A DNA stretch of 64,000 bases, from the NCBI GenBank assembly GCA_003971905.1, contig RSEE01000078.1, positions 1 to 64,000 on the forward strand, in the 5' to 3' direction. Below, in pieces: positions 4,386-57,910 of the stretch (position 1 is its first letter; every line of letters begins with the position of its first letter). The position numbers and the translations under genes were made by a program. The DNA is from Moniliella sp. 'wahieum'. Its lineage: Eukaryota. The notes under the pieces are model-generated. The model was not told the DNA's origin. It searched no databases and saw only the letters and a list, made by a program, of their open reading frames with translations.

Positions 4386-4950
4386 ATGATGCATGATGCA
4401 TGATGCATGATGTTCGATGGTCGAGATTGTCGATGATGGAATCGATGAAGGGAACCCGTCACGCGTCACGCGTCACGCGTCACGGTAACGCGTGACACAC
4501 GGTGTGTGACTAGTGACTTCGGGATGACAGGTGACCGGTGACTTCGGGATCAGTGGTCAGTGGTCACTCCGGTCACTGGTCACCGGTCACCCTCATTGAA
4601 TCCTCAGTACCCTCGGTACCTGAGTACTGCCCCTTGGCCTGAGGCCTGAGGGCCTGCGTGCTGAGGCGCTGAGGCTGAGTACGAGTATTCACATTCACAT
4701 ATTCACATGTCGCATCCCGCTCCATCCGCGCCACGCCACGGCCACACGGGCGTAGTAGCGAACGCACCGACAGCTGCCGCGCTGACGCACCGACGGCTGA
4801 CGCGCTGGCATGTGACATGTGACATGTGACTCACAGCAGGTTTTGGCCACCGCCTGTATCTGCCCGGGTCAGGTCAGACTCGGATCTCAGAGTATACTCT
4901 CAGTACCTTCTCAGTCCTCTCCGTGCTCAGGCTGACCTCAGCGCTACTCG
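4385..4950. repeat. Dense field of nnTNAnn heptamer arrays
   Basis: gaTGAtg(caTGAtg)x3 at 4385-4412, (cgTCAcg)x4 at 4457-4484, plus ggTGAcc, ccTGAgg and tgTGAca arrays. Confidence 0.9.
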
Positions 4951-8959: not shown

Positions 8960-11900
8960 GCTCAGTTGAACGTTGAACGTTGAACGGTCAGCGGTCAGCG
9001 CCAGCGCTCAGCCGCTCAGCGCGTCAACGCGTCAGGCTCCGCCGCTCAGGCTTCTGGCTTCTGGCCTCAAAGCTTCAGGCCCACCAGCCTCAGGCTCAGC
9101 CGTTCACTGGGTACGAAGCTTGAAGTATAGTATGCCAGTGGCAAGGTGACACATGTGACATGTGACCGGTGACCGATTGCAGTCACTAGTCACCGACCAG
9201 TCCGCACTGTCGATGGTTTATGATCGATGATATCACCCAGGGATCAAAGGAAGCTGAAAGTACGCGCTGAACGTTGGCTGAAGCGCTGAAGGTTGACGTT
9301 GAGGAGCTTGAAGCTTGAAGCTTGACGCTTGAGAGCTTGAGGGCTGGTGCTGCGCTTATGCGCTGATGCATGATGAACTTGACACAACTAGCTTTGAAAT
9401 GCGAAGTATCTAGTGAGTACCGAGTACCGAGTGAGTAGTACGATTGAGTAGTACTATTGAGTAGTACTAGCACGCTAGTGAGAATATTCCAACAGTAAAG
9501 CTGGTAACAAAAAGTAACCCAGTAACATGATGCATGAGTAACACATAACGCCTGAGGCCTGAGGTCTAAGATCTAAGCCCCAAGGGCCTAAAGAAAACCC
9601 AAGCCTGCAGACCAAGGAAAAACGGGTCATTAATTATTCAATTGTACTGACCGGTGACCGGCAACCGGTAACATGAACAGCCAACCGATATTCGGTAGCT
9701 GGTAACTGGCAACCAGTAACCGCGGATCGGGGATTAATTCGATTAATATTAGTCCTAAAGCTTAAAGCTTAAAGCCTAGCGAGCGCTTAAAGCTTACAAC
9801 TTAAAGTGAGGAAGATTGAATCGAGACACTTGTAGCATGCATGATGCATGACGCGTGACGGTAAACGTGAGACGCGTGACGCGTGACATGAGGCAGTGCC
9901 AAGCGCTGTTTAATGCGCTAATGCGCTAATGCGCGAAGCGCTAAGCGCTAATGCCCGAATGGTTGCGGCGTCTGTCTGATGTTGACGCCTGTTGGCGCTT
10001 GGAGCGACCCCTGGGAACGCGTGAGCCCATGCCCACGGACTAGATAGCGGGGGCCGGTAGATTGGCAGAACGACGAAGGTGGAGATCGGAGACCTGGAGG
10101 CCAGGCCAGGTGGGCTGCCGGTGTGTGTACCGAGTACGTATAGTGTCGCCGTTGGACATTGGACGTTGGATGTCGGGCTGTGGTGTAAACTCGGGTCCGG
10201 TGCCGGGGACGTGGCTGGCAGCCTCCGCAGCCTCCGCTGCTGATCAGGCGGGCAGGCCACGTGTCCATTGCATCATGTCATCAATCCTCGATCCTCGGCA
10301 TTCGACACTCCCCCAAAATTGGGCCGGGCTCAAGATGCCCCTTTGAGATCTGAGGATCTGAAGGCCAGACCAGACCAGACCAGACCAGCCAGGCCCCAGG
10401 GGCTGCCAAGAGCAGAGGCACAGCAGGAGTCATTTCCAGTTTGAAAAAATCCCCAAGCTGGATAGCGAGCGCCACACGCGGACAATTTTCAATCGGCTAT
10501 TTCACGCGTCACACGTCACGCGTCACGTCACACGTCATGCTCATTCATCGATCATCGTGAGCGCGTGAGCTTCATGTTCCAAGCGCCAAGCCAACTTCAG
10601 TTGTGTCCATGTTTGACATGATGCATGACACTATCACAGTGACACATTCTATGTGACTGGTGTCGCGTGATCTGGCACCCATAACATGCATGACATGGAC
10701 ACCGACGACGTCGTCCACGTTCAACTTCACCTGCTATCCGTTCGCTTCCGTTCTCTTTTCCCCATCGGCTGGCCCGATGCGGCCGCAGTCAGTCATCAGC
10801 GTATCAACGGCTCAAAACCTTGGATGTGCTTTGGGCCAGGGGTCCTGCGGCGCCCCCTGAGGCTGGCGCTTCCCACAAGTAGGTCCCGAGTACTTGTCAC
10901 CGGGTCACCTGGCCGGTCACCGGTCTCGGCGCCACTTCGGCACCCTTCCGAACGCAACATACCATACACTGAGCACTCCTATGTACTGACTTGTACACCG
11001 ATCGATGTTCCGAAGCGTCCGACAGGCCACCAGAGGGCAGAGCCGGGTAGGACATCGCATCATGCATCATGCATCATGAATTGAATGAATGAAGCTGAAA
11101 TCTCAGGTCTGAGATTGATAACTTCGATATAAAACTCGATAACTATGTGCATGTTGTCGATGAACTTAACCTGGGTGTGACGAGTGACTGGTCCCGTCCC
11201 GAAACGAGGGAGAGGGAATTATTAATTAGGCCTTAGGCCTTAGGGAACCCTGTTGTCCCTGCCGTGACGCGTGACGCGTGATCCCCGGGTCGGCAGACAT
11301 AGAATGGCTTATTGAATCGGAACTTAGCACAGCAGGGCACAGCTGGCACAGCTCCAATGTCGCTTGTTAATATGTTATGCATGTTAATCTTCAAGCTTCG
11401 TGACGCGCGTACGCGTGGCGCGTGGCCGAAGTGACAGGGATTAAATACCAACGCTTAGTCACTCGCTGGTCCCTGGCTGGTTTGCTGGCTCAGCGGATTG
11501 GTCGTTGAACGGGTTGAATTTGACACCTTCAGATGTTCACATGATCATCGGATCACCAGTCCGTCTCCGCCAGCGAGATGGCGTCACATGTCACATGTGA
11601 TTGCCCGCGTCACACGTCAGGCCTCAGGCGCGTCAGGCCGCGCATCAGGCCCACAGGCCTCTCAGCCCATCGTGGAATCGCAAGTCACAATGGCATGTAT
11701 TGTCAAGCTTCAAACTTCAATCTTCAAGCTTCAAGTGAAGCTTCAGTTCCGAAAAGTTCCGCAAGGTTCGGAAGCGAGCGGCCCGCGGAGGCGCGGAAGA
11801 GTTTCAGACAGACGCCTGTATGTATTAGCAATCGCTTCTCGTAATTCCACCTTCCGATTTCCAACCTTCAACGTGCGTGTCCCACGCGATCCCCCGAGCC

Positions 11901-14190
11901 CCCACCCCAGTTGCTGTTGGAAATTTACCGATAACCTATGAATGATTCATGCACGTAGGGACGTATAGAGTTCGGAGGTACGCTGCCACATGTGCGCCTG
12001 TTTTTGTTTGGCATCATGTGGATCATGCATCAAAGTGCAACAGGCCAGTCTGTTGGGGGACAGAGACCACAGCCCAGTGCACGCGTACCAGCGCGTGGCC
12101 GAAAGCGCTTGGAATATGGATCCCACGCCTCTTCTAACAACACATGGAACAAGGGAACATGCATTGGTACAGAGGACCAAGTTACTGATGTACTGTGACA
12201 CATGTGACATGTGGCATGTGATGTCCTGAACCTCGAAGCTTGACATGTTTGACAGCTCAGGCTGAGCGACGTTACTCGCTCATGCGTCACGCGTCACTAG
12301 TCACTAGTCACTGTGACCACGCCACGATATGACCATGTCACGTGATGAACGTGGCAGCTTCCCTGAGATCTGCGATGCGGCGCCCACGGAGGCATCGGAC
12401 TCCAGAAGATTGATTCTTCCTGAGGCCTGACGTTGAAGCAGGCTTCAATCTTCTGAGCGCTGAGCCTCAGTGCTGAAGAAGGGCTGACACTGTGCCGAAG
12501 CACTTAAATGCATAATGGGGTCTAGGCGTGGCACCTCGGGAAGCGGCACAAAAGGATCAGCCAGCCCCGGTGTTGCGCACACTGCGGGATCGGACGCGTG
12601 ATGCCGAATCGCACCCACTCAAGTATAACCCTTGCTAATGCCAATGCTTCAGTGGCCTTGGCCATCGAGGCCATCCAGGGTCGGTGGCCAAAGGGCTGTG
12701 CTGTTGCTTGTAACGAAGGCTACCAATTAGGCGCTTGGCCATTCCCACGCTGTTTGGGGTGCTGAGGCACTCACAGCATTCTCGCTGGACTAACTAACCC
12801 ACCTCTGTCACACGTATCACGCCTGTCGTACTATGATTTTGGTGAGACCCTCAGGAAGGAGAAGCGCAATCATAAAGGGTCATCGGCCGGTCATCGACTC
12901 ATCATGCATCAGGCCGGAGCCTCAGGACTCCAGGTCTCATCGATCATCATGCATCACTAGTCACTAGTCACTGCCGTGGGCCTTTCTCGGACGATCGCAG
13001 AGCATCGAGCATCGGAACCTCAGGCCAAGGTTATATTACCGGTTACCACGCCTGATACCACATGCCCCGCATATGCCGTTCCTCTTTGTTATGACGAGGG
13101 CTGTCGGCGAAGGCTCGGTGCGTATATTTACGCCACCTGGACGCCACCCATCAGCGTCATCACGGTCTGTTCTGCGTCGCATATCACATGTGACACACAT
13201 GTGAAATGGGTCACTAGTCACTGGTCGCTGTCATAGTCACGAGCTTCAAGCTGCAGGCTTCGCTGCCCCCCACATCTGTAGCCCCCCTCCTCCCCCCGAC
13301 CAGCCATCAGCCGCAAATCCCACACTCATCGGCGACTAATGACGTTAGTGACAGAGGCACCTGCACACTTCACATTTCACCGCAACACCGCGACCCCTCG
13401 GCCGAAAGCCAATTGTTAAACGTTAGTCATCGAAACGGGCATGCTGCATCGCAAGTGGAGCTGCTAGAGAAACTGTTACTGTTACGCACACGTGAACGCG
13501 CCACATGGGCACGCTACATGTGTTCCACACGATCGCCGGAGCGTCGGAGAATGAGTTCTTCATGAGGTTCCGAGGCAGACGGTCGGGTAGAATGGATCAT
13601 AATCCGGTAACCGGGGGTAACGGTAACCGTCGTTGACCGGTAACGTGGTTCTAACCTACCTGCTTCTGGTAGGAAGTACTCTGAGGTATCTGGAGGCCTT
13701 GAGCGCCTGCGCCCGCTATGATACACCAAGTGATGCTAGTGATGCTAGTGATGCATGTAACATGTAACGCCTGAAAGGCTCAAGGCCTGGTGCACCTGAT
13801 GAGGCGCTGTGCGCAGATATTCGAACCCGTCAGATCTCAGACTAGATTGAACACACAAGGGGCTGTTATTTATGCAACTGGCACCGGCTGATTGTAAATA
13901 GGTGTCGGGGAGTTGGTGCGCCAGGGTCGCCAGTTGGACATCGGGCTGGACCTGGACGGACATATGTTGCAGCCTGGCACAGCAGGGCACAGCTCGCATA
14001 CCAGCACGGTTAAGTAACCGGTGTTTAATAGTGAAACGCACGGTTACCAATATGGCTGATGTGTGCTTCTGGATCTTGTCTGTACTCAAAACATAGTACT
14101 CAGCACAGACCTAGAATTTAGAAAGGGCTGATGAAGACTCAGACTGAGAGTACTCAGACTGGGTTTACTAGTTACTGAGGATCAGTGCGT
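8960..14190. repeat. Long field of nnTNAnn heptamer arrays upstream of the bHLH gene
   Basis: Arrays at 8965-8999, 9145-9174, 9754-9774, 9840-9860, 9917-9931, 11224-11244, 12285-12312, 12452-12465, 12945-12972, 13729-13769 and many more. No credible CDS. Confidence 0.9.
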
Positions 14191-15975: not shown

Positions 15976-16029
15976 ATGGACGATGGATCGCAATGGTTGA
16001 TCAACAAGGCCCTACCGATGGCTTGAAGC

Positions 16030-21546: not shown

Positions 21547-22677
21547 ATGGCATCTCCTCAACGCATCCGCACTCCCCTCACCGACCTGTTCGGCATCAAG
21601 CACCCATCCTTCTGGCCGTACGTCTCACCTGGTTACTGGTTCCCCCGCGTGCGCGCCACCCGTTAACCTTTCATCTGCTCATAGGGCATGAACGTCGCCT
21701 CAGGCCCCGACTTGGCGGCCGCCGTCACCAATGCCGGGGGGCTCGGCGTGATTGGCGGGCTGGGGTACACACCCAAGATGCTGCGCGAGCAGATTGGGTA
21801 CATCAAGGAAGGTCTTGTGGACAAGAAGGCGCCGTTTGGAGTGGACCTGCTCCTGCCCCAAGTGGGCGGTGATGCTCGTAAGACCAATTACGACTACACT
21901 GATGGCCGCCTCATGGAGTTGGCCGATGTGATTGTGGAAGAAGGCGCGAAGCTGTTTGTGTCGGCAGTCGGGGTGCCTCCACAAGAACTAGTAGAGCGTC
22001 TGCACAAGGCCGGCGTCGTGGTGGCCAATGTGATTGGCCACCCTAAGCATGCCGTCAAGGCTGCCAGGCTGGCGTGGACATTATCATTGTCCAGGGCGGC
22101 GGAGGGCGGTGGCCACACGGGCGATGTGCCGAGCGTGTGTCCGTGCTGTCCACGTTTGTGGACCTGGTTACCCAGAAGGGTGGAAGTCTCCGTTGACGGC
22201 AAGCCGGTGATTGTGGGTTGCAGCAGGTGGGGTGTGGAACGGACGGTCGCTTGCCGCCTCGCTGGCGTATGCCGCCGGGTTTGGGTTGGCACCCGTTTTG
22301 TTGCTTCGGAGGAAAGCGGGGCGCCACGCGGACACAAGCTTGCGGTTCTCTCAGCTACTCACGAAAGCGACGTCCGAACGATTATTATGACCGGACGTCC
22401 GCTCCGCTTAAACGAACCAAGTACATTGATGACTGGGAATCCCGGCCAGAGAGATCAAGCGGTTGACTAGTCAGGGGATCATTCCTGTTCTCGAAGACCT
22501 CAAAGACGATCCTGACGGATCCAAGGAAGAGGCAGTCCGCGAACGTTACTTGATGGGCAAAGTGGCAGCCTGCATCGATGACATTTTACCCGCCAAGGTG
22601 ATTATCGACCAGTTTGTCGAAGGGCAGAGCGCGCGATCCTGGCTAGCAAGGCGGCGCTTGTTTCGTCCAAACTATGA
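21547..22677 (+). CDS. Nitronate monooxygenase / 2-nitropropane dioxygenase family flavoprotein
   Basis: MASPQRIRTPLTDLFGIKHP, intron 21618-21684, then GMNVASGPDLAAAVTNAGGLGVIGG...EGGGHTG...VWVGTRFVASEE...YLMGKVAA. Frameshifted; the corrected C-terminus is ...VSSKL*. Confidence 0.92.
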
Positions 22678-23469: not shown

Positions 23470-25924
23470 ATGGTTCCAATACTCATCGATCGTCTTGCCC
23501 AAGGCCCGAGTTCTCCACCTCCATCGACCAGCTCCCCCCTCTTCCATCCAGCCCATGCCTGCTGCCGTGGCGGATGCGGGTGCGACGAGGAGCATTCCCA
23601 CCACTCGCTCGCTGTGCTGGACACGGGTGGCGCCAATTTGCGCGTGTGGCTCTTTGACGGCCCGGCCACGCCCGCTGCGCTCAAAGCGGCGGCGAGCGGG
23701 ACGTTGGACGCGCTCCAAACGAGCGGAGCCAATGTGCTGGTGCTGCCCAATGTGGTTGTGCGCCCCCGTGTCGGCGGTGCAGCTGGAGGAGGCACTGCGT
23801 CCGCGTCTTCTCCCGTACCTATCTCGCTGGCCCTGAGATTGGGGAGCAGGTAGGTGTCTATGCCCGCCTTCAACTCCGTTCGCCCGTCGAGCGTGGCTTT
23901 GTCACCGATGGGCCGCCCAAACGCTCTCCTGGTCTACCTCGCTTCGCATGCACATGCGCTCCAGCAGCAGCAAGAGCTTCTTTCTGCACCATCGAGCAGC
24001 TTGAGCAAGCGGACGCGAAGAACGGGCAATCCAGCCCGGAACCTGACCCTGTAGCTCCGGACGGCAAGTCTGATCACCCCTGCTCCCACCCGGCGCAAAT
24101 CGTCGGCGCGCACATCCACTACCCAGGCAGACGTGGGACAGCCATGGTCCGGGCAGGGCCAGAACCATTGCTGTGGGGCCGGACAGTTCTGGTCACGGAG
24201 CCTTACTTCAACATGCCCGAGTTGGCCGCTGCGATGGACACGCTTCTGTTTGAAGAGTACGGCGCCGCGGCCGTCTTGCGTGCTTCTCCTGCCGAGCTGG
24301 CCGCGTGGTGTCTTCGTGTCCCTCCTGCCACAGCCATCACGGATGTGGCCGGGGAAAAGTCCAGGGTCGACAGCAGCCATACTCTCTCTCCCTCTCCGGC
24401 CGAGGACGCACCTCTACCTGCGCCTGGGCCGACGCCGCCCATACGCGCCGCGCCTGCAAAACGGAAACGTGGGCTGGGAACTGACAAGGCCGCGGGCGCG
24501 ATTGCGACGATGCGTTTCCTGAGGCAGCCTTGGTACTTGACTGCGGCCACAGCTATTGCCATGCCGTACCGCTAGTCCGGGGACGTGTTGTCTGGGGGGC
24601 GGTCAAACGGTAGTTGGACATTTCGACGTGGCGGCGCTCATAGCTGACGTGTGTGTTCGTCCAGCCTTGATTTCGGCGGGAAGCATGTGACCAATCTGTT
24701 GAAAACATCGCTTAGCTTTGGCAATGGGACTGTCTGAGGATGCATGGTTGGTGGGCAAAGTCAAAGAGCGCACTACCTTTGTTGCCGCCTCGGCTGGGCC
24801 CAGTCAACGCCAAGAAGCGCGGAAAGCCGCCCAGTCCATCTTGAAGCGGGATCCGAGCGAACGGGATCGTTGCCTGCCTCATCGATGGTCTTTTGCGACC
24901 CTAACCGAACTGTCGAAACTCGCTGCGATCACGCCTTGCGCGGACCCTATCGCGCTTGAGTACTTCCTCCCGGACTACTCGATCCCGTCTTCTGCTCCTT
25001 CCCCTACGATGATCAAGGACGCGACCGTAACGGAACCCAGCCCGCCTCACCCTTCTCCATGTGTCCTCCAGCACGCTTCCAACGCCTCTTACCCTAGAGA
25101 AGATCGACCGGCCACCTTCTGACCGGTATGGCACGATTGCTCCCTCGGATGCGGCCATGCGGGAATTGCTGCCCTTATCGAGCAAACAATGGTCCAGTGA
25201 ACAAAGGGACCGGTTCCTCTGTCCTCCCCAGCCGTTACCGATTCGCAACAAACGTTCTGCCGTACCTGGAGCCGAAGCACAGGAGGAGGAGGCACAGACC
25301 CTTCGCCTCACCACCGATCGCTTTGTCCACACAGAAAACTTTTTCGCCCCGAGCGGGTACCAGGTCTGCCATCCATTTCCTGAGCAACTGGGCCTAGCGC
25401 ACCTGGCAGTGGCCGCTGCGTCCGAGGCGGAGCAATGGTTTTGCACCGCGAACTCAAGCAACACAAGCGGGGTCGTGGCGGGCGGGAGAAAGGGGTGGGG
25501 GTGGGGCTGTTGTTGGCCAACGTGTTGTTGTGGGAGGGGCGGCGTGCATTCCTGGTCTAACGGAACGATTGGAGGAGGAACTACGACCGTTGGCACCCGA
25601 AGCGACGCCGTCCGGGTTCGTGTTCCCCTCAACCCCATCTCGGCCGCTGCCGAGGGGGCGCGCGTTTCTGCTGGCCTCGCTGGCTACTCTGTATCCGTCG
25701 ACGGCGGCGGCGTCGCGCCGTGCTTCCGCTTCCCATGCCAAAGACCAAGAGTGGCAGGCCCAAGCGTTGGCGGACCTGCCGGGCCGATTTACAACCAGGC
25801 AAACCTACCTCGATCGGGCGCGCGGGACATGAGAAATGCTATGGCGACGGCCACGGCTACGGCAGGCCCAGGCGCACACGGCAACGGCAGAGACGACATA
25901 GACAAGATAAAATGCTTAAAATAG
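23470..25924 (+). CDS. ARP6: Actin-related protein 6 (SWR1 complex)
   Basis: LAVLDTGG, VLVTEPYFNMP...LLFEEYG, VLDCGHSYCHAVP, VKR|LDFGGKHVTNLLK (intron 24610-24664), LEYFLPDYS, LTTDRF, GGAACIPGLTERLEEELRPLAP. Low-complexity insertions and frameshifts. Confidence 0.85.
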
Positions 25925-28900
25925 AGCAGCAAGCGTGTCCGCTTGCTCGGCACAGGACATGGCCAGATCTTGAACCACGGGATCCGAATCGGAGGTGGCA
26001 GCAAAGCGGGCGAGCTGCTTGATACGCTGGACCAAGGCCGGGTCCAGCAGTGTGCGTTCCTGGTGGTCTTGCGGGCCGAGATGATGAGGCAAGAGGGAAG
26101 GGGACGCCTGCTTGCTGGGCAGACGGAGAGCAGGGAGCCCCCTCAGAGAGGCGCAGAGACAGATGCTCGGGTTCCCGAGGGCCGAGAGCTGGGTTTCGGC
26201 GGCAACGAGAAGCAAGCTGAGCAGCAGGTACCCGGCGCGTCGAAGCTGGGGCAAGGAGCGGTCGACACTCAGCGGATCATCTTCCAAGTTCATCTCCTCG
26301 TCCGACTCGGCGCCCATCTCGTCCACGTTGGTCCGGCCTGTGACGGGGCTTGGGACGGGCCGGCGGCGTGACTAAAGGCCTCCTTCCCCCCTTCGACGGT
26401 GAGCAAGTCGATGGCCAAGCGGGCCAGCTCGTCACCAGTGCCACTGAGTGCCACAGCCAAGGGCGTCGCTTCGACAAGGGTGCCGAGAGTGAGATGGTCG
26501 ATACACACAGTGTTGTAGGTACCTGTGTATTCCGCACAAACGCTAGTAATGGGTTGACGACAATCGAAACTAGCGCGAAACGAAGTCAGTAGAAAGTAGA
26601 AAGGTATGAGGGAGGTGGAAAGGATAACGTACGTTTGGGCGCATTGCCTGCCCCAGACGTTGAATCACTTGACCAATCGCTTCTCCCACACGCAGACGAC
26701 GGTCAACTTGAACAACGGTGGTGGGCACCGTATCCAGCTTTCGGATGGAAGGCTGACGGGCGTGGAGCAGATGCGGGCGTCGGTTGGGCTTACCGTACGG
26801 TGCCCATTTCTGGCATAGGTTGGTGTGGGGGGGGAACAGTGCTAGGGGGCGAACCCTGGACGTACATGCCGACCAGGCGACGGAAGACTTCGCCACCATC
26901 GGGGCGAAGAGCCAATTGGGCCAACCCCTTGATGGCGTTCATATACACATAGCTGTCTTCCTCATCCAGGGCGAACAAAAACATCTAGGACGCGAGCGAG
27001 TTGCGCCGCCGACAAACTGGCCTTGGGGGAAGAAACTTCGACAATCAAAGGTCGGCGTTCTCCCACACCCACCTCATCCAACGCAACCAGTTGGGTGAGC
27101 AGGACGAGGCCATGGCCTCGGACCGGAATACTGGCATCCTGCACAAGCGTCATGCTTCCTTGTACTGCTGGGCCGTCTGCTGTTCGGGCGTGGGGTGGTG
27201 GTGGTGTCGGTGGAGGGAGAGGACGCCGTCGCCTGCGCTACGCGCACGGAGAATGAGACGCAGCGTAGGTAAGACCCTGCTCAACGGTTCCAACTCCTCG
27301 CTGGGGCCGAGCGTGGGGACGCCTTGGTGAGACGGGCTGTGAGACGTGCCGGTAACGATCGCCTCCAGCTTGTTCATCACTACTCCCAAAAGTGGTGTGT
27401 TTTCGAGGGAGAGGGAAGTGTTGTTGTACAACAGTTCGACCAACAGGCTGGCCGCAGCCGGGCGCATGCCCGTAGCCAAGATGGCCTGGGCTTTGGCCTG
27501 AGACTCATCTTTTCGACCGGGCGGAGCGCAGGTTCGGCTGCTTGCTCTGTCTCGTCCCGCTCTTCGGAACCTTCAAGAGCATAGTCGATAAAAAGCAACA
27601 CAGGCAGTGCATGCTCCGTGTAGAGCGATGGATGCACGAGGAAGTACGGTGGTAATGCCCTGGAGCAGTACGGCCGAGTGGGCGAGACGTTGACTGGTGT
27701 CCGCCAGGCGAGAGCGCTGGACTCGCAACAGTTCCATCAAAAGCAACTTGAGCAAGTCGTCCAATAACGTGCTCTTGTTCTGGTTTTGCACAGGCGGGTC
27801 GGCCGCTCGATCGTTTGAGCGTGGCCCAAACAGGTCTACCACCACTTCTACCATAGGTAGGAAGGTTTGGATGGGGTCCGAATCGGAAGAGGTTGGGGAC
27901 TGGTAACCAGTTTGGTGTCTGTCGAAAGACGCGCCAGCAAGGACGCTAGCGCCTCCGTTTCGTCCCGCTTTTCATCCAACACGACCCGGCGGACGGTCAA
28001 GTGCCCGAGGTCCCAATGCCAAGACCAAACGGCAGTCGAAGGCGTGGGGAGCTTGACCGAAGCAGGGGAGAGTGCGCCGCCCGGCTGGGGACCGAGTACA
28101 TTCAAAATTTCCTCGTGGTGATCACATTTCGCGTACTGCACCATCTTTCCAGAGCGGCTTGGACCGACTGCATCAGAGCAACGGGGTCGATCGTCAGCGG
28201 GTCAGATGAAGTGATCTCCTGCACCTTGGGTCCAGATGAGCCGGACCCCTTTCTCTGGGAGGAAGCCAGCAAGAAGAAGTAAAGGATGAATGTACTGGCC
28301 CAGCCCAGCACCGTGTGGAGAAACGTGGGATCGGGTGGGCCAATGCAAACGAGGGCGAGAAGAGTTTGGAGGGAGAGGACCACAGCCGACGGTGACGCCA
28401 GCTCATCCGTGTCCTCGTCCTCTCCTTTGGTGGGGAGGGGAGAAAGGGAAACGCAAGCCGATGGGAGAGGAAGGTATACACCTCGGGATGGAGAGAGGCA
28501 AGGTGCTGAAGGGCAGTAGCCGCAGTGGAGGCATGGACCTGTTCGATGCCCCGCACTGCGCGTGGCACGGCAGCCAACAATGGCGCGCCCGCATCCGCAA
28601 TGACTTCCAACAGTTGAGGTACCACCGCCGCAGCCATGGAGGTAGAGGAAAGTGGGAGGTGGGGTAGCCAGCAAGCTCACCACTCTTTGCACTTTGGCAG
28701 GAGCCGGGGCGGGATCCACCTCGTGCTCCAACACCGAGTCGGACACCTCCTCGGCACGCTGGGAAAGGTGGCCGTGTGGCGGCGGGGGCGGGTTGCCAGC
28801 AGCGCGTGCACTGCAACGGGGCGGAGAAGCAGGATGTTGAGCATGGCCCGCACGCCTCCGGGACGCAAGAGCTGGGCCGATAGAACCGGCTCGCTTGCGA

Positions 28901-30059
28901 CGAGAGGCCCGGAGGCAGCGGCACGGGCGCCGCCTGGTTGGCGTCCTCCAGCACACCACTCACGCCCTGGACAGGTTGCCCGCCATGCACCCTCGCCGTC
29001 ACGCCCGACAGGGCAGCGTAGCACTGAGCACGTTCAATCGCCGCAGTGCCGTCTTGAGCAGCGCATTAGCCACCTGCGGAGGCGCCGCGCCCGAGCGGGC
29101 AATTGGTTCCCTCCCACAGCCAGAGTCGTAGGCTACCGGAAAGCGAGGCGGAAGAGCGGAGCGGCAGACGCACGCAGAACCAAGTTCGCCACCCGCTCCT
29201 CCTCGTCGCTCCATCTCTCGGGGCAGCGGCGGGTGGCGGCGGCTTGCCAGTCTGGGCGGCCGCGATCACGCGCTGCACGTCCACCTCAACCACGTGAGCA
29301 TAAGAGCGTACCGCACCAGACACGAGACGCACGTCCTGCAGACGCGCAAACGGGTCGGCAGCACTGCCAATCTCGTACAGCGACGCACGGCCCCCGCGGG
29401 CAGCCTGGGAGTGCCCTCGTGCGGCGGCCGAGGCGCGGTCGTACAGACTGGCCACCAGGTCAAGCGCCCACTGGCTGACGATCAAAACGAGCGTGTCGAG
29501 CGTCTTGTGGTCGGCAGAGCCCAAGAGGGGGCATCCGATACCGGCACGTCCTGCTCCTTCCACCCTTGGGCGAGGCTGGCGCCGCAGCCTGTCGATTCGC
29601 AACAGCCGTCTCGAACGACGTGCCAATCCGGCCCAGCGCATCGAGCGCAGCAAGGCCCGTGCACACCTGGGTCAGTACGAGGGAGAAGGAAAGCTCGGCC
29701 TGGTCGTCGGCTGTCTCCTGTGCCGGCGTCCGGGGGCCCGCCGCCTGCACGACGGGGACCGGCGGGTGCAAGCGCGCGTCAAACTGCGTTGGATCCGCCG
29801 CAACGGCGTGTGCATACGCCTCCACCCGCGCCTCCAGACGTCTGCGCGCGGCTGGAACAGAAGGTCAGTCGGGATGTGGAAAGGCAGGAGGCGGGATGCG
29901 CACTGAGCGTAGCGCGCCAGAGGGGTGCCAGGCGGGTCGACGGGGGAGGCGGCTGAGGTGAGCAGGCTCAGCGGCGGCGAGGGGAGGCGATGTGGGTCGG
30001 CCATCGCGTTCTCCCGTAAGGAAACGGGCGGCGGCCAGCGCGTCCACCAGCGCAGCCAT
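25916..30059 (-). CDS. RTP1: RNA polymerase II nuclear-transport/assembly factor Rtp1 (Tango6 family)
   Basis: YKEAMTLVQDASIPVRGHGLVLLTQLV, ALDEEDSYVYMNAIKGLAQLA, DRRLRVGEAIGQVIQRLG, LRRAGYLLL and DSDPVV match the RTP1 C-terminal motifs. Start MAALVDAL at 30059; many frameshifts; probable intron near 26520-26635. Confidence 0.82.
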
Positions 30060-30616
30060 GGCGGAGATGGTGGTGGTCGCCACCCACACCCACACCGACG
30101 TCCGCCCCGACCTGTGCACCACGACGGGCCTGCCAAATGGCGACCGAGAAGAGCAAGGGCGTGGGCCGCCACACAGCTAAAACTTTCACGCCCAAGTCGC
30201 GCCCGCCCACATAAATTTTTTGCGGGAGAAAGTATTCTCTGTGGACGGCGTTCCAGCGGCCGCCGCGGCAAGGCGACGCAGTGAAGACGCACGTTCTGGC
30301 GGACACGAGGGCGCACATCGCCTACACACACACTACAAACCCTCGACAGACAGGCCGAGGCCAAGGAGACGCCCTGGTGGCAAGCGTACAAGAACGTATA
30401 TGATAGTATTAGCGGGGCAGTGTCGTCCCTTGGCTGGCCACGAAAAACGGTCCATAAGCGCAAGCGGGGGGAGGGAGGTCTGATGAAAAGGGGGGAAGTA
30501 AACGAAAAAAGGAGAAGAGACGATCAGAAACGAGCGAGCGCCGAAGCACGGCACGAACCGGGCGGGGGAGAGCCAGATGGGGGGAAGCCAGGCGATGGCC
30601 GAAGCTTGATCGCGCG

Positions 30617-33101
30617 TCAGGCCGACAGGTCCGACAGGCCTACCCGCCCTGGCGGACGACCCAACGAGGCTGTCCGCCCCTTGTCCGCGCCGTGCGGCAC
30701 GCCGAGCTCGCGAGTCAACTTGCCGCAGATGCGAGTGCGGGAGCGCAGAGCGTCGTCCGGGTCCCACAGGAGCGCGACGGAGCGCATCAGGTCCCGGTGC
30801 GCCCGCTCCACCAGCGACAGCCAGTAGTCCACCGTGCTCTCCACTGCCAGATCGGGCGGAAGGTTTCGCAAGCCTCCCGGACCGTGCCGCCCGTGCTTCC
30901 GTCTTTTCCGATGCGGCGGGGGGGCCCGAACGCAAGACGGTAAGAAAGTGTTCGCGCTGCGCATGCCGGTCCCGCGCGAGGTGAAGCAGGGAGAGTGCCA
31001 GTTCGTCCCTAGCCGAAGGGGCAGAGGAGCCCGTCGGTACGGGGGCTCGGGGATCGTGGGGAGCAACGGGGAAAGAGCCCCCATGGGAGCCTCCGGGTAC
31101 CGGCTCAACCGACTGGTTCGACAGGCGCTGTGAGGGGGTAGATAAGGGTGCGAAATAGGGCCGCCATACGAGCCACCTCTTTCAGGGGGCGGCGGTCAGA
31201 AGAAATGTCTGTCGGATAGGAAGGACGGGAAGGATGGGCGGGGGGATAGCCAGCAGGCACAGGCAACGGCAGAGGATAGCCTGCCGGGAGCGGCGGGGGG
31301 GGCAAGCGAACGGGTCCAGTCGACGAGTGATGAATGTCGGGCTGCGAAGCGGAGACATGGCTCCCATGAGGGACGGGAGGATAGGGAGCGCCAAAGGAAT
31401 CGAAGGGGGAGGCGAAGTCTGCCCACTGCCCTGTCGTAAAGGGGGGCCGGTGGAAGAGGCGAGGTAAGCAGCGCTCGAACGCTTGCGCTCCCTTGACACA
31501 AGCTCGTCGTCCGATCCTTCCGGCAGCAACTCGTCCCGGAGCGAACGGCGACTGCGCTTTCGTGGCCGATCAGCCGGCCCACTCCATCTTCCGACCCCCC
31601 TGGCCAGGCGGGTCGTTGTGCTCAGCGGTGCGCAAGGTATACTGATCGCCGCCGACGGCACGCATCTCTTCGTAGAACACAAACGCAGCTTGGTGCACCA
31701 TATCTGCGCGTTCTCGATTGGAGCTGTCCTCCCGCAGACGACGCCAATCGTCTTCGGAACCTTCGAGGCGGCCGCCACCGGCGCGATTGTAGCGCAATGT
31801 AGTTCCGGGCCATCGTTCCGGGTCCAAGGCCCAAGTGAAGGCGCGAGTCAGTCGGACAAGATAATCCCAGCGGTGCTTGACCATCGCACCACTTAGTTGC
31901 CGTTCGCGGTCGCCATCCATCATCTCGGGGCGATTGAGCACCTCGGCCAGACGTTCCCAAAATTCAGCCTAGATAGACCAGGACGGGTCAGTAATTTGTG
32001 GCTCACTCGAAAGAGTAGACAAGCCAGCAGTGGGTCGGAAAACAGGAAGCCGAGGCAGAGGACATACAGGCAAAGAGGATGGGTAGCGAGCAAACTCGCC
32101 AGCACGCAAGGCTTTGTATTGTTCAATCAAATGGAGCGTTCGGCGCTGGGACATGCCTTTCCTTCGGGGCTCTTTGGGCGCAGAATCGGCTGGGGGCAGA
32201 CGAGAGGTGGCGGGTATGATGCCCGAGGCAGACAAAGGGGGGGCCACTGTGCTTTCTCTCCTTCTTCCGCCGGACAAAGGAGCCAGGGAAGTGGATGTCA
32301 GGTCAGCGCGCTCGCGTTGGAATGGCGAGAGGGGAAGCCGCCGGCCCCGAGTGGTACCGAGGAGGAGGGGTGTGCGGCTGGGCTCCTCTTCTGCGGTTTC
32401 GACCTCCTCCCCAATGGTACGTTGTAAGCGTGTCGATGTACGGAGGGCGGCATGGAGCGGTGGGGCGCGGTCGTCGTCGTTGGACGGGCCGGCAAGAGTA
32501 AAAGGCGGGCGCTTGGGTGTGTTGGTCTCAAGGGGAAGGGGGGGCTTGGGAGGCGATGAAGTGGAAGCCACGGGAGGGGGGCTGGGAGAAGGATCCAGAT
32601 CCTCAGGCACGTCACCAAGGGCTGTTGAGCGCGTAGACGACGTGGACACGAGGGAGCCTAGGCCGGAGCGTGCACCTATCGGGCCAGTGGTACTTCCCGC
32701 GCCGGTCGCGCCTGGTGCGGGAAGAGAAGTGGCCACAGACGAGCGGCGCACGCTCCCGCCGGCGGCGGCGGCGGCGACTGATGGGCGACGCAGGGCGGCT
32801 GGAGGGCTGGTGGGGCGGGCAAGGAGCAAGGCCTGGTGGGCCTTGGGATGCGGCGGCGGAGGGGGCAGGGGCTGGGAGGGGGACGGCGGGAGCTGGAGGA
32901 CAGATGGGGTGGGCTGGCGCGGCGGCGCGTCGGGGGGATGGCCGACGGGGCTGGGGCCGAGGGGGATGGGGATGGGTGCTGGTCGGGCAGGGTGCTGGTC
33001 CAGCTGCCGGGGGGGATGGCGGCGGCGGCGTGGCGGGGGGGAGGCAGCGGGGGAGGCGGATGGCGCCGGGCGGCGGAGGCTCGGGAGGCGCTGACGGCCA
33101 T
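30617..33101 (-). CDS. Pro/Ser-rich protein with a Myb/SANT-like (trihelix/MADF-type) domain
   Basis: An intron GTATGT(32067)...TTACTGAC...TAG(31969) joins MSQRRTLHLIEQYKALRAGEFARYPSSLP|AEFWERLAEVLNRPE...LSGAMVKHRWDYLVRLTRAF. This has the LI...W..LA..LN...K.RW..L spacing of Myb/SANT-like domains. Ends approximate. Confidence 0.65.
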
Positions 33102-33529
33102 GGAGGGGGGCGGTGGCGGTGGCGGGGGCTGGCCGCGGTGGCGAGCAGCCAGGCGGGCGCGGCGGGGGGCAGGCGGGTGTGGTGGAGCTCGGGGGGCGTT
33201 CTGTGCGGTGCGGCGCGGTGCTGCCGGGCGGCCGCCGAACAAACCAACGCAAAAAGCCACACCGCACCCAGCCGCGCCCGCCACTGCCCCCGCGCCGCTG
33301 TCTCACGCCGCTGCTGGGTGAATTCAGTCGGCATCAGTGCTGCGCTGAGCATCACCCATCCGCTGCAGCCGCGCAGCAGCCGCACGGGGGCACTGTCACG
33401 CCCTGCGGGCACTGCGGGGCGTCGTCTGCGCCTGCCGTTTCAGTCGTTTTTCCATCTGCATCCTATGAGTCCTCAGTCTGAGTCCGCAGTGCCTCAGCGC
33501 AGCCCCCGCACCGCCTTCCCGCTCCCACG

Positions 33530-36500
33530 CTCGGCGTGAGCTCAGCTCTCAGTGACCCCTGACGCGCACGCTCACGCCTCAGCACCTCAGCCTGACGCCC
33601 AGACTCCCCCCGGTAAGCTCACCGACCGAGCGGCTCAGCGCCAGCGGGACGGGCCAGGCGCTGGCCTGTGCTGACAGGCGCCGGCTGCCTCCCGTCCAGT
33701 ACAGGGCGAACTTGAATTTTTGAGCTGAGCACGCAGAGTCCTGCCCTACTAGCACTACCCGTGGCGGCCGACGACCCAGATCGTCTTGACAGAACTAACT
33801 TATCAAGCTCGAGCTTGAACAGGGCCTGAAGGCGGAGTACAATTGGGTCCTGGGCCTGCCAGAGCGCTAAAGACTGTGAAGGGTGTTGTTCAGTGTTCAG
33901 TGTTCAGTGTTCAGCCACGCTTCACATGGAGGGCCTCAGTCAGCGCGTGGTGCCGCCTGCATACTAATAGTGGCACCGATGTCTCAAACACCCGGTTTTC
34001 TTAGGTGCATTCCATCCGATATTCCTTCCTAGAGGGCAGGAATATCCTCTAACGTTGAACGTTGAACGCCCAACGACGCGTCACGCGCAGGGGGGTTGGA
34101 ATCTCAGAAAGTTTCTCACAGGCCTCGGCCTCATCGATCATCGAGCACCCGCACTGGTGCACAGTACGCGTACAGACAGGTGCTGCGGCTGTACGCAAGC
34201 GGCTTTGAGACGCAAGAGGTTCATTAATCGATTAATCATGTTACGTTCAACGTCACGTTCTGTTGAATGGAAGCTCAGCCTACGCGTTCAGCGAGCGCCG
34301 CTCAGGCTCGGCGTTCAGTCTCAGATCCCAGTCTTACCAGTTACTAGTTATCGGTTACCGGTTACCGGTTACCGTTACGCGTTACGCGTTACCGGCCTCA
34401 CCAAGTGACTAGTCACAGTGACTGGTGGCGCGTGACGCGACGGAGGGGCCCGAGCATGTGTCATCGTAATGTGATCCATGTGACACGGGACGGTCAATGC
34501 CCTGCCGCCCAGCGCCCATGTAACACGTAAATCAATATAAATAGCCTCCCAGTTCGATTTCAGTCGTCCTCTCAGATCTCAGTGCTGGCCTGTATTGGGT
34601 TCAGCCGCTCAGGCGCTTATTAGGCCTACTCAGTACTCAGTTGAGTACTCAGTGAGTACTCGATAGTCCTCTTCAGTGTTCCGAACGCAAAAAGGGCCAT
34701 GCTGTACGGCGTGTGGACCACATGCTGCAGGGACCTGATGTGACCGGATCCCGATGCCAAGCGAGACAGCAATCAAGAACTGGGTCAATAGACGATAGGG
34801 ATTGATTGCTGGTGAGCGATAGTAGAGAATAGCGGAGAGGAGGAGGAGGAGGGTAGAAGAGAGAAGACTAAGAGCTACGACTGCCGGGACCTCTAGAAGG
34901 AGGCCAGTCGGCCAGCCACACTTCCGCCCGAGCGGAACTAGCGGAGCTAGCCGCTGGATGGAAGTGGCTGGGAGCGCCAGAGTCCGGCTATGCTTTTGGC
35001 ACACGGCACTAGTGTCCCAACAGACCCCGTCTAACATCGCCCATTCTGCATCAGTCCAAATACAAACCGTCGATCCAGCTATTGCAACACGACATCGAGC
35101 TACGCACTAGTCACTACTGTCATCGAGTCAGCTAGTCCTAGTCACTAGTCACAATCATCTCGCAATAGGGCTGAGGACAACATCCATAACTCGGTACTTA
35201 CAAGTTATTAGGTCCCCAAATCAGTAACCCGTACACCGAGATCTGAACCCAGACATGCGTACTACGCCTCTAGTTATGATATTCCGACAATCAACAATTG
35301 AAGCCACATCAACCGGCGGCCATCCAGCATGCCAGGCCAGTACCAGGCGCTGCCCAACCATACCCAGGGCATGTGGCAGGTGACATGTGACATGTGAAGC
35401 ATGTGAAGCTTGAACAAGCCGTCGGAGAGACAGGTATCCGGTAGGAGCGCGCACACCTGAGATGATCCAGATGACTTTTTATTATAATAGAGTGTGTATA
35501 CCCGCAGGCGCTCGCGCTCAAGCTTCAAGCTTCAAGCTTCAAGCTCAAGCTTCAGTGTTCTCAAGCTCTTCAAGAGCTTCAAGCCTCTCTCCGCACGTTA
35601 ATATTTAATGTTAAACGTTATCGATCTGTTATGTCATTACGCGTTACGCAAGACACATCTCGCGTGTGGCATATAATAGTGTGCTTGGACGGTGAAATTG
35701 GTTGAAAGGGCAATCGACGACCCCGCGCTCATGCGACGCTCAGCGCTGATGCTCAACTGAGCGCGAGCATGCCATCCATGGCAATGTGACACAGAGAAAG
35801 CCAAGGCGGAGATGAGATCGATGAGACCGAAAAACAACGTAGTGGGCATTGAAGTTCTTTTTTTCTGGCAGCAACAAGAGTTGGTTTGGTACTGAGTACT
35901 GATTAATGATTAATGATTAATGATTCGGAGTACTCAGACACATACTGAACGTACTGAGTAGTACTGACGCGAACGTTAACCGGTACGTTAACGTCGTTAA
36001 CCGCGTATCGCTGACGTATCATATATCATCGATGATCTCGATCATTAATCATTCCCTCATTGACATTCCGTACCATAGCGTAACGGCGACCGGTAAGCGA
36101 CGGTAACCGGTAACCCCCCCCCGTATATAGTAGGTCACTAGGTCACTATACAAATTGGTAGAATATGACTTAGGAAGCACTCGCGATCCTATATGGATCA
36201 GCTGCAAAGCAGCCTTTAGATCTTCAAACAAGGCGTGAAGGCAAAGGCTGACTTAGCGCTAACGTCTGCAAGCGTCAAGCTTCAAGGTATGAGATTTGAC
36301 ATGGCGTTTTTGCCCGTGGAATAAACAAACCAGAATGTTTCGCCTCTCCACAAACAATCGCGTGCTGAGAAAGAAAGAAGATCGACGGTGGCCGGTGGTG
36401 TAGGATGTGTGACATGTGATTGATCTCATCGATCATCATCGATCTCTCCTCATGCTATTGAGACCATCGGCCCTGACCGGGGTGGGTGACCGGTGACCGG

Positions 36501-36965
36501 TGACCGGTGACCCCTCCATTCCACACCGGGCTCAGCTGCCGCCCTCTCTCCTGTTGCTGCGGTGATGGGTTGGATGACTCGTTGACGCTCCTTTTGTTTG
36601 TTGGGTAGAGAAGCGGCTTGCTGGGCTTAGAGGGCACTTGCTGTTCACACTCTCATTCTCCCAGATCTCACTGTTGACCGTTGAACGTTGACCGGTGACC
36701 CTGAATCAGGCCTCCTTCAATATAAATCAGCCATAAATAGCTCTAGGCCACATCGGCCTTGTAACAGGTAATAACCTTACCGGTATTGACCCGAGATGAA
36801 ATCTGAGATCTGAGATGGGAGATCTCAATCGTTCCCCGGACCCAATCCACTTCTCGGGGTACCCGCAGTAGTACGCAGTGGCGCGTGCCGTATCCCTGGA
36901 TCCATTATGCATCTGCAGATCCACACATGCCCATCCCCATCCCCATCGCAGGTCACTAGTCACTG
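33530..36965. repeat. Dense field of nnTNAnn heptamer arrays
   Basis: Arrays at 33888-33915, 34332-34393, 35379-35415, 35516-35543, 35596-35609, 35891-35925, 36133-36147, 36485-36512, 36673-36700 and 36802-36815. Confidence 0.92.
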
Positions 36966-37267
36966 CGCGCTTCTAAACCAAAAAGGGAGAAAGCCTGACA
37001 CCTACCATTTGCTTCCCCCCACGCTGCCAGTCGAACTGCGGTCGCGGTGGATGCGCCGTGGAGGCGGCGTGCGAGACAGGCCGCGCTACACTACGAAGGG
37101 TGCGGTCCCGTCCGCCCCTGGATCGCGAGACAAAAAGAGCGAAGTGGACATTGGTCCAACGGGGAACAAAGGGCGGTATGACGGGAACGAGGGCGAAAAA
37201 GACAAGGATCAAAGGACCATGAACTGATGGAGGCGGAAAAAAGAGAGCAACAGTCACAGCGAGATAA

Positions 37268-37351
37268 GATGGGAGGGGATGGGAGGGGAGGGGGGAGATG
37301 GGATGGGAGGGGAGGAGATGGGATGGGAGGGGAGGAGATGGGATGGGATGG
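37268..37351 (+). repeat. GGGAT/GGGAG purine-rich repeat with G-quadruplex potential
   Basis: More than 8 GGG tracts with short loops; the 20-bp unit gggaggggaggagatgggat occurs twice. Confidence 0.8.
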
Positions 37352-42085: not shown

Positions 42086-44316
42086 ATGCTATTCTTCGAC
42101 TCCAAAAACACGGTCGACCCCAGCCTCATCGCCCAATCCGATGCCCAGGCCCAAATCGGGTGAGTTGATAGAGCTGTGCTCTCCCCTGCCCCAGAAGCTG
42201 ACCGTACACAACTAACCTCGCCGTGCCCCCCTCCCACTCCCACTCACACTTCTACACACAGGCGAACCCAAGACCACCATTCAGCGTCCCCCTCCCCGAT
42301 TCGGAGGAGCCTGGCTACAGTGCCACGTATGTCAATGCTGTCTGCCCCAAGTTGGAGGTGGAGGAGACCATGTACGAGCTGAGCGAGGCCGCCCTGACCA
42401 AGTTTGCCGATCGCCCTTGCCTCGGCTGGCGTCCGTGGGACTGGGAAAAGGGCGAGTTTGAAGCGCGCTACCACTGGCTGACGTACCGCGAAGTGGCCGA
42501 GATGCGTACCGCGCTTGGCAGTGGGCTGGTGCAACTGTTGGAAGATGGGACGTTGGATGCGAGTCGCACGCTCTGCACGGCCTATTGGGCCGCCAACCGC
42601 GCCGAGTTCCAACAGCTGCAACAGGCCTGCAGCGCTTACTCGTTTCGCATCGTCGCCCTCTACGACTCGGTCGACATGGACGCTGGCATTTACATTCTCA
42701 ACCATGCCGATGCGCAGGTCCTAGTCACCACGCACAAGCATGCGCGCCTGGTGATTGACCACAAGGACCAGCTGCCGCACCTCAAGTTACTGGTGATTAT
42801 CGATGCTCAAACCTCGCACCACGCCGTTGCCCACCCCACCCCCCCACCCGGCCAGGACGCAGAGACGATGCGCCACGTATGGGAGACCAAGGTGGTCCCG
42901 GTGATGCGGATTGATGAGTTGATGGAGATGGGTCGGATGGAGCCCAAGGCGCACCGACCGCCCAAGCCGGATGATGTGGCGCAATTGGTCTACACGAGTG
43001 GCACGACGGGCAACCCCAAAGCAGTGATGATCACCCAGCGCACCAAAGCGTTTGCCGTCCGGTCGGTGCCGACGTTGATTCGGCTGACTTTTCATGTATG
43101 CTAGGCTACCTCCCGGTCGCGCACTCGTTTGCGTGCATGTTGGAAGATGCGGGCCTGGGTACGATTGGCGGTCGAGTCGGGTATCTGTGTGGCGACACGC
43201 GTCGGATCCTAGAGGATCTGCAACTGCTGCAACCGGACGTGTTTCCTACCGTTCCACGTGTGCTCAATCGCATTGCCGCCAAGATCCAGTCGACGATGGA
43301 GGAAGAGAGCCTTAAAGGCCGGCTGCTCCAACGCGCCGTAACAAGCAAATTGGCCGCTCTTGATGCCACCGGATCCGTTCACTCGTTGATGTGGGACACA
43401 CTCGTCTTTAATCGCATTCGCGCCCTGATGGGCGGTAAAGTGAAGCTGGTGATTAGTGGTTCGGCGCCCTGCTCGCCGCCCATCCTCCGGCTCTTGCGCG
43501 TTGCGCTCGCTTGCCCGTTGTGGAAGGGTATGGCATGACGGAAAACTATGCGATTGGCACAGTGTCGGTGTATACGGACAAGTCGACGGGGACGGTGGGA
43601 CCGCCGCATGCGGGGTGCAGCTGCGACTGAAAGACATGCCCGAGTTGGGCTATCGCGTGTCCGACCCCAACCCCCGAGGCGAACTGATGATTCGAGGTCA
43701 GTGCGTGTTTCAAGGCTACCTCAACGCACCAGAGCAAACGGCCGAGGTGCTCGATGCCAACGGATGGCTTTCTTCTGGGGACATTGCCGAGGTAGACTCG
43801 CGCGGCCGGTTTGCCATTATCGATCGCGCCAAGGCGCTCACCAAGCTCAGCCAGGGAGAATACGTGTCGCCCGAGAAGCTGGAAACGGCGTATACGTTTG
43901 AGCTGCCGATTTTTTCTCACTTGATCGTATACGGTAACAGTTTCCAACACTTTCTCGTTGCTGTTGGCTCGGTCGAACGAGCGGCATTTGTCGACTTTGT
44001 TCGTTCGGTCCGCAAGCCAGTGGAGGAGACGTGCGCGATGAAGCCGCAACCGGCACGGATGGTCCGGAGCAAGAAGATTTGACGTGCCAGCGGCCTGCTC
44101 GGACCCCGAAGTGATCAAGGCGGTATCAAGGCGCTCGGCACGCGGGGACGCAAGGCCGGCCTGAAGGGTTGAGATGATCAAGAACCTGCGGCTCTACCCA
44201 ACCCCCTTTTCGGACGAGATCATCACACCTTCAAGGTCAAACGCAACGGGTTTGCTCGCATGTACAAATCCGACTTGGACCAGATGTATGCCGAAGGACC
44301 GGTGGCGACCAAGTAG
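42086..44316 (+). CDS. Long-chain fatty acyl-CoA synthetase
   Basis: YTSGTTGNPKAVM, GYLPVAHSF, FPTVPRVLNRI, ISGSAP, RGELMIRG, WLSSGDIAE, IIDRAKALTKLSQGEYVSPEKLE. Intron at about 42160-42261. Confidence 0.93.
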
Positions 44317-45029: not shown

Positions 45030-46105
<1,076 letters not shown>

Positions 46106-57770: not shown

Positions 57771-57777
57771 TATAAAA
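57771..57777 (+). promoter_or_regulatory. TATA box of Hsp70
   Basis: TATAAAA 140 bp upstream of the ATG, followed by a CT-rich leader. Confidence 0.6.
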
Positions 57778-57910
57778 AAGAAAGCGTGGGTTGCCATTCG
57801 CCATCCCTGTCCTCCTCCCCTTCTTCCCTCCGACCCTTCCCCAACTCTTGCATCCTACATCCTACCTCCCTTTACTTTTCCCCGCCTTTTCCTTCTCTTC
57901 CCAACGCACC

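Follow-up and report, generated by a model that had tools for sequence, protein, structure and literature searches.

Elements of the hAT type, such as Ac/Ds and Tam3, leave excision footprints with palindromic nucleotides, in which both copies of the target duplication are retained and a few junction bases are the reverse complement of the adjoining flank. Ascot-1 of Ascobolus, a hAT-type element, reportedly leaves footprints of this kind as well, according to an account by Colot et al. from 1998. The duplication made by hAT elements is 8 bp long and has the consensus nTnnnnAn, with T and A near its ends. Here we describe short arrays of heptamers, each centred on the trinucleotide TNA, in a stretch of 64,000 nt from Moniliella sp. 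'wahieum' (contig RSEE01000078.1, positions 1 to 64,000; this whole stretch is called the window below). The arrays resemble hAT-type footprints in both of the features just named, and end joining by the host would be common to the two. They differ from them in having a 7-bp, TNA-centred duplication, in a swap of bases that leaves the length exact, in the stacking of events into arrays of up to 5–6 units, and in that no element is at hand.

Short palindromic additions that arise from the asymmetric opening of hairpins are also found in V(D)J coding joints, where RAG hairpins are opened off the tip by Artemis and offsets of 1–3 nt dominate. Unlike those joints, the additions seen here lie in the germline DNA of a fungus-like genome, lack signal sequences and stand between the copies of a direct repeat. 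Tandem 7-nt units are shared with heptamer microsatellites and with the cyanobacterial STRR heptamer repeats, families that each have one unit sequence and grow by slippage; here, in contrast, the units vary by site and the junctions are mirrored, so that neither copying of one unit nor growth from an existing repeat describes the arrays. Among the reactions that cut DNA in this general manner, those of hAT, Transib, RAG1 and MULE form hairpins on the flanks, which are opened by host enzymes, for example Artemis, and end joining then leaves footprints, as set out in the parts of PMC5499845 that bear on excision. Duplications of 7 bp are attributed to two elements of the Basidiomycota, hAT7 (Pucciniales) and Kyakuja (Laccaria bicolor), in the relevant sections of PMC12730594. 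The duplication length of hAT7 fits the unit found here, as does that of Kyakuja, and the basidiomycete host range of both fits the best protein matches in the window. The likeness is one of duplication length and host range; no recognisable copy of Kyakuja, nor any other such element or its transposase, was found in these 64 kb.

The nearest published idea is that 10-bp repeats in Ustilago maydis are footprints of past transposon activity, as proposed in the portion of PMC4081816 that deals with them. Those repeats, like the arrays here, are short, intergenic, basidiomycete in origin and read as scars, and they occur in a genome with few elements. They consist of one 10-bp motif in scattered single copies; that portion of the paper describes no flank-derived, mirrored 7-bp step and no arrays. 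Full-text literature searches turned up no account of mirrored 7-bp scars that derive from their flanks and are stacked in arrays. The arrays probably belong with the hairpin-type excision footprints, as a stacked and mirrored 7-bp form of them.

Junction geometry

The window contains 68 exact tandem duplications with a period of 7, against a mean of 4.3 and a maximum of 12 in 50 block-wise dinucleotide shuffles; the counts at periods 6, 8 and 9 are 65, 11 and 10. In 49 of the 68, the unit can be rotated so as to read as a perfect odd palindrome, in 48 cases with a T.A core (xyTNAy'x', the primes marking complementary bases). When the sequence was parsed into chains of TNA cores with 4-nt spacers between them, 51 chains of at least three links were obtained at spacing 7, as compared with 2–12 at the other spacings among 4–12. 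Two of the 51 are phase-shifted readings of an AATGATT array and were dropped. In the 49 that were analysed, 83 of the 131 spacers are 4-nt palindromes, for which the chance value is 1 in 16. The period of 7 is thus a fixed duplication length, as expected of the target-site duplication of a transposon.

Junctions that consist of a TNA, a palindromic tetramer and another TNA were counted 148 times, where about 8 were expected, while palindromic spacers of 2, 6 and 8 nt between TNAs were counted 25, 2 and 1 times. Fifteen of the 16 palindromic tetramers are in use as spacers, AATT alone being missing. It follows that the recurring thing is a geometry and not a sequence or a repeat family, and a junction geometry as fixed as this points to an enzyme that sets it. 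The centre base is G or C in 107 of the 128 junctions in which it is unchanged. Kyakuja (KDZ) elements have the termini 5'-CA..TG-3' without inverted repeats, according to the same sections of PMC12730594. CATG makes up only 13 of the 148 spacers found here, which argues that the spacers are not the ends of elements.

Judged from the letters, the elementary event would convert a heptamer abTNAcd into one of two products, the left-mirrored form (L) abTNAb'a'/abTNAcd or the right-mirrored form (R) abTNAcd/d'c'TNAcd; the unit that keeps both of the original arms is called the hybrid. Among 151 two-link chains, there were 16 L, 23 R, 5 symmetric cases, 1 plain duplication and 1 X junction (a palindrome next to a palindrome). 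The rest comprised 21 with a palindromic spacer unrelated to the flanks, 9 in which one half matched and 75 with no match, the last resembling the ~110 chance chains found at other spacings. By arithmetic (1/256 per chain), ~0.6 L and ~0.6 R would be expected in such a set, and the two-unit cases stand at 39 mirrored against 1 plain. A second scan made no use of TNA and looked for a perfect 7-nt palindrome beside a unit having one arm and the centre in common with it. This gave 96 junctions, near equally divided into 49 L and 47 R, against 10.9 (maximum 21) in 100 shuffles, and 88 of the 96 have a T.A core. In all of this, what stands at the junction is the adjoining flank in reverse complement, as it does in hairpin-type footprints. 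In 18 of the 88 T.A events, the unmirrored arm of the hybrid lacks the complementary base, for example in ctTCAag/ctTCGtg, and such half-site hybrids indicate that the mirrored stretch is 3 nt long, with the T as part of the copied arm.

Non-palindromic TNA heptamers are also present in two intact copies with 1 or 2 nt between them. In 10 of 15 cases, where 1.9 would be expected, the 2-nt insert gives the adjoining 2 bases in reverse complement, i.e. is of the P (palindromic) type, and the 1-nt insert is complementary to the neighbouring base in 10 of 11. Four of the five 2-nt inserts that are not of this type lie in genic DNA and the fifth within a dispersed repeat. With a stricter count by maximal runs, the P type makes up 7 of 18 inserts for a gap of 2 nt and 8 of 15 for a gap of 1 nt. 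By their sequence, these inserts would be classical P-nucleotide additions between the copies of a target duplication, and their position between intact heptamers indicates a duplicated unit of 7 bp rather than one of 5 or 4 bp. Where the centre base differs between neighbouring units, it has changed to the complement in 13 of 20 cases, which fits an occasional hairpin opening, or mirroring, at least 4 nt from the tip.

Compound arrays and repeated hits

Several arrays combine junctions of different types, and for all six that the original prediction had cited, the letters match the reading it gave. At 35891..35925, the sequence ACTGAGT ACTGATT is followed by three copies of AATGATT (type LRRR); the ancestral hybrid acTGAtt has one left-mirrored copy (acTGAgt) on one side and three right-mirrored copies (aaTGAtt) on the other. 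The array gtTGAcc/gtTGAac/gtTGAcc/ggTGAcc at 36673..36700 has a plain junction (CC.GT), a left-mirrored one (AC.GT) and a right-mirrored one (CC.GG). Two others are simple triples of a left-mirrored unit, a hybrid and a right-mirrored unit (L-H-R), namely tgTGAca/tgTGAcc/ggTGAcc at 9154..9174 and caTGAtg/caTGAcg/cgTGAcg at 9840..9860. In the last two, cgTCAcg/cgTCAct/agTCAct at 12285..12312 and caTCAtg/caTCAct/agTCAct at 12945..12972, the right-mirrored unit is present twice. A seventh L-H-R array, absent from the earlier list, is found at 11217..11244 (aaTTAtt/aaTTAgg/ccTTAgg, the last unit again twice).

The order left-mirrored, hybrid, right-mirrored is seen in 7 arrays and the reverse order in none. 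Since such a triple is wholly determined by its 7-nt hybrid, only ~0.0002 would be expected in 64 kb by arithmetic. The proposal that left-mirrored units lie to the left of right-mirrored ones holds in 7 of 7 arrays, an order which is largely forced by the geometry. Slippage merely copies junctions that are already there, and each L-H-R array therefore calls for at least two separate mirroring events on one ancestral heptamer; the assertion that mixed junction types do not come from slippage of a single unit stands. It had also been anticipated that the inner spacers would be related to the outer flanks, and this is the case: the outer flanks account for 164 of 262 spacer halves, against 34.6 (maximum 72 in 2000) when flanks are shuffled among arrays, and 17 of the 49 arrays conform fully, against 2.1 (maximum 8).

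The junctions are unevenly spread, with 138 of the 148 in five non-genic blocks (2–6, 8–14, 16–18, 20–24 and 34–38 kb; 20 kb in total), and the GC-rich, Pfam-annotated genic parts have few, most 2-kb bins having none. These 20 kb contain 887 non-palindromic TNA heptamers; 31 of them are accompanied by an L copy, 34 by an R copy and 7 by copies of both kinds. Independence would predict 1.19 double-hit sites (Poisson p ~2e-4), so that a site already hit is hit again ~6 times more often. The blocks were picked post hoc, which raises the expected value and thus makes the comparison conservative. Repeated re-targeting of the same sites, as the original prediction had proposed, is borne out by this excess.

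Origin of the arrays

On balance, the arrays are probably footprints of a cut-and-paste transposon that makes 7-bp, TNA-centred target duplications, is excised through hairpins on the flanks and hits the same sites again. Insertion of such an element at abTNAcd would create a 7-bp target-site duplication centred on T-N-A, and excision would leave both heptamer copies behind. Both flanking ends would go through covalently closed hairpins, as in the hAT, Mutator-like, Transib and RAG reactions, and host enzymes would open these ~3 nt off the tip. At the resulting junction, one copy would have exchanged 3 of its nt for the reverse complement of 3 nt from the other, with the outcome that the site is longer by exactly 7 nt and one unit has become a perfect palindrome. 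The length would be kept, and k bases swapped, if the two hairpins shared one opening offset, k, and one strand were ligated before the other, and the strand sealed first would decide between L and R. An offset of k = 3 would give a perfect palindrome with the centre kept, one of at least 4 a flipped centre and one of 0 the rare plain junction, while the opening of one hairpin only would give the 7+1 and 7+2 forms. As the product would retain and double the target, it could be hit again. Palindromic units would then breed true, and the hybrid would stay central, with left-mirrored copies accumulating to its left and right-mirrored copies to its right.

Several observations weigh against this origin. 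There is no pair of 7-bp repeats bracketing inverted termini in the 64 kb, the only hits being array-to-array artefacts, and no transposase domain was detected by Pfam among 270 open frames of at least 75 aa in the window (24 + 150 + 96). The density of scars, 138 junctions in 20 kb, is extraordinary for footprints and far above any case known to us. T and A adjoin the centre (nnTNAnn) in 88 of 96 events, unlike in the hAT consensus. At half-sites, the arm without T is practically never mirrored, the 8 cases outside the T.A class being at about chance level, and this asymmetry in favour of the T arm is not predicted by a symmetric model. There are also 4 X junctions, 32 of the 49 chains do not conform fully to derivation from the flanks, and 7 arrays (at 9875, 9940, 16048, 16437, 16831, 35386 and 54714) have differing hybrids on each side of the palindromic unit, where ~0.3 would be expected from ~80 events. 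Some of the non-conforming 3-link chains are chance alignments, of which 5–12 occur at other periods. The double-hybrid arrays may result from deletion between nearby arrays of the same unit, such neighbours occurring close together.

The last two observations also limit the further claim of the original prediction that each array acts as a counter of events. The number of units gives a rough lower bound, but it cannot be taken as the count itself, since identical palindromic units also change in number by slippage or recombination. The interpretation offered there is thus supported in part.

Other derivations were considered and rejected. A central break with both halves left unfolded predicts X junctions, of which 4 were found as against 96 junctions of a palindrome with a hybrid. 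A 3-bp TNA duplication of the PIF type predicts other products, and neither a period-3 nor a period-5 signal is present; more generally, the 3-bp TNA/TWA duplication of PIF/Harbinger elements does not describe these arrays, in which the step is 7, intact 7-mers are duplicated and the centre is mostly G or C. A derivation of the spacers from element termini conflicts with the variety of tetramers in use, 15 in all, and with the dependence of the spacers on the flanks. In the search for an element, a candidate foldback across 8965–16732 was likewise rejected; it scored 37 against a shuffle maximum of 30, with a match restricted to the arrays.

Alternative explanations

The same junction geometry would be produced by a nuclease that acts independently of any transposon, be it a domesticated transposase or another enzyme, and makes 7-nt staggered or hairpin-capped breaks at TNA. 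Intergenic DNA would be cut repeatedly, and each repair would add a mirrored 7-nt unit that recreates the target, leaving self-amplifying scars. Such an enzyme would account for the very high density of junctions, for the clustering of hits on the same sites and for the lack of an element, inverted termini or a transposase domain in the 64 kb. However, one window of this size says little on elements elsewhere in the genome, and two intact 7-bp copies with P-type nucleotides between them are the expected product of an insertion followed by an excision. Nor are we aware of a nuclease that cuts in this geometry independently of a mobile element, and we consider this explanation unlikely. If it were true, a self-amplifying mutational process would be writing new intergenic sequence in this genome, amounting to at least ~1 kb of the 20 kb.

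Quite improbable, in our view, is an origin without breaks, whereby replication slippage, combined with brief switching of the template to the other strand (quasi-palindrome correction), would first build palindromic heptamer microsatellites and later perfect them. Template switching is said to turn imperfect inverted repeats into perfect ones, in work by Ripley, by Lovett and by Loytynoja and Goldman, and there are pure arrays of identical palindromic units that could grow by slippage (18 of 2 units, 9 of 3 and 3 of 4). Yet a process of this kind has no start from a single-copy heptamer, in which the single TNA offers a stem of only 1 bp, and the first events are mirrored by 39 to 1. Switches driven by local homology should vary in length, whereas the geometry is fixed over 15 tetramers (3 nt inverted, 4 re-copied, +7), and no enrichment is seen for palindromic spacers of 2, 6 or 8 nt.

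Duplications of 5 bp are made by Transib and RAG, and a transposon with a shorter duplication, either of 5 bp (TNAcd, Transib-like) or of 4 bp, could also reach a gain of 7 nt if 2–3 P nucleotides were always added, and from a single flank. It is possible to write both L and R as a 5-nt direct repeat with a 2-nt P-type gap, and the gap is of the P type in 34 of 99 such repeats, against 12.5% by chance. This would need an asymmetric target and one-sided opening of the hairpins, however, and periods 5 and 4 show no excess of TNA chains, so that the products without P nucleotides are missing. The intact 7-mers with a 2-nt P-type insert (10 of 15) and the plain 7-bp duplications at 9760 and 36673 argue for the longer unit, and the flips of the centre to its complement (13 of 20) would be impossible. 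We regard a shorter duplication as very doubtful.

Selection of the arrays for a cis-regulatory or structural role, for example as binding sites of a dimeric factor kept as palindromic repeats, is scarcely credible, even though the units are dyad-symmetric and the arrays are confined to non-coding DNA, a large part of which is upstream of genes (for example, a bHLH gene at ~7.5–7.9 kb), since the T.A beside the centre is the sole common part, arms in 15 of 16 forms would be unreadable by one protein, and the link between inner spacers and outer flanks records a history and not a motif.

If the arrays are transposon footprints, an unusually legible record of transposition is kept in this genome. 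The target (nnTNAnn), the duplication length of 7, the opening offset and the re-use of sites could all be read from the scars with no element present, the hairpin-opening offset being mostly 3 nt and sometimes at least 4. A measurable share of the intergenic DNA would then be excision scars; at 7 nt per junction, the process has added at least ~1 kb to the 20 kb. The scars would also supply new palindromic sequence and short tandem repeats, and they would offer a testable explanation of how a fungal genome with apparently few transposons can nonetheless have been shaped by such elements. The same idea has been put forward for Ustilago maydis, where the evidence from sequence is much weaker, to go by the portion of PMC4081816 cited above.

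Genomic context

The GC content of the window ranges from 50 to 68%, and neither an Rfam match nor a long reading frame of bacterial type was found in its 64 kb. Pfam recognised exons of ordinary eukaryotic genes, with a bHLH domain at 7531–7887, a nitronate monooxygenase at 21685–22467, an AMP-binding enzyme at 42202–43535, a metallophosphoesterase at 45389–46102, a protein kinase at 51335–52654, ribosomal protein uL5 at 53760–54578 and a head-to-head pair of Hsp70 genes at 55540–57059 (minus strand) and 57776–59822 (plus strand). Frames antisense to the second Hsp70 gene matched PF10712 (NAD-GH) with E values down to 5e-36; this family is a known artefact of frames that run antisense to Hsp70 genes. 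The best named relatives of the nitronate monooxygenase are fungal, mostly from the Basidiomycota (Tilletiaria, Acaromyces, Exobasidium and many Agaricomycetes), at ~60% identity, which points to a fungal, probably basidiomycete, source. A metagenome scan with the same frame gave 10 loci of 42–55% identity, on contigs of 1.1–2.8 kb that are useless for a comparison of intergenic DNA.

A dispersed repeat of ~1.3 kb, with copies 81–86% identical and no Pfam domain, is found at 2996–4380 and 14875–15975. Fragments of it are present at 20203–20495 and 36167–36220 (reverse strand), and also at 17992–18187, which matches 425–603. The interior of the repeat has almost no heptamer arrays, and arrays adjoin its ends. 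The first of the two long copies, which are 81% identical to each other, ends in an array of caTGAtg in 3.9 copies (4386..4412), and the matching place near 15976 has no array and a single imperfect stretch of heptamer length. This difference is suggestive; it is consistent with the formation of a scar in one of the copies, without being decisive.

The region 24000–33500 has a GC content of 60–68% and long overlapping open frames on both strands, with no Pfam match. It contains zero junctions of the type TNA, palindromic tetramer, TNA. Purine-rich G/A tandem repeats at 8749–8832 and 37267–37351, with units of 16 and 20 nt in 4–5 copies, are unrelated to the TNA arrays.

Other arrays in the window

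Around the two compound arrays in the 34–38 kb block, a number of further arrays can be read. A complex one at 36017..36053 (taTCAta/taTCAtc/gaTGAtc/tc/gaTCAtt/aaTCAtt) includes one mirrored unit in which the centre has flipped, from TCA to TGA. Single events are seen at 36273..36286, a lone right-mirrored cgTCAag/ctTCAag, and at 36408..36437, where the left-mirrored tgTGAca/tgTGAtt and the right-mirrored tcTCAtc/gaTCAtc are adjacent. Pure palindromic units are found as a pair of ggTAAcc at 36101..36115 and as ggTGAcc in 4.0 copies at 36485..36512; the latter array is exactly 28 nt long, which shows that the phase of the unit is TNA-centred. At 36795..36825, gaTGAaa/tcTGAga/tcTGAga is accompanied by degenerate copies, and elsewhere there are runs of near-continuous degenerate units, for example at 9240–9340.

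Longer periods are represented by the period-8 variant TAGGTCAC in 2.2 copies at 36131..36148, in which the heptamer GGTCACT and 1 extra base complementary to its neighbour are repeated together. Further period-8/9 variants are TAATGCGC in 5.8 copies at 9911–9954, AGTGATGCT in 2.9 copies at 13729–13754 and CATGTGAAG in 2.1 copies at 35391–35409. All of these are heptamers with 1–2 P-type bases that were later repeated as a longer unit. At 35973–36003, repeats centred on GTTAAC with a period of ~12 (acGTTAACcggt) form an even-palindrome relative of the 7-nt pattern, and are perhaps the scar of another step length.

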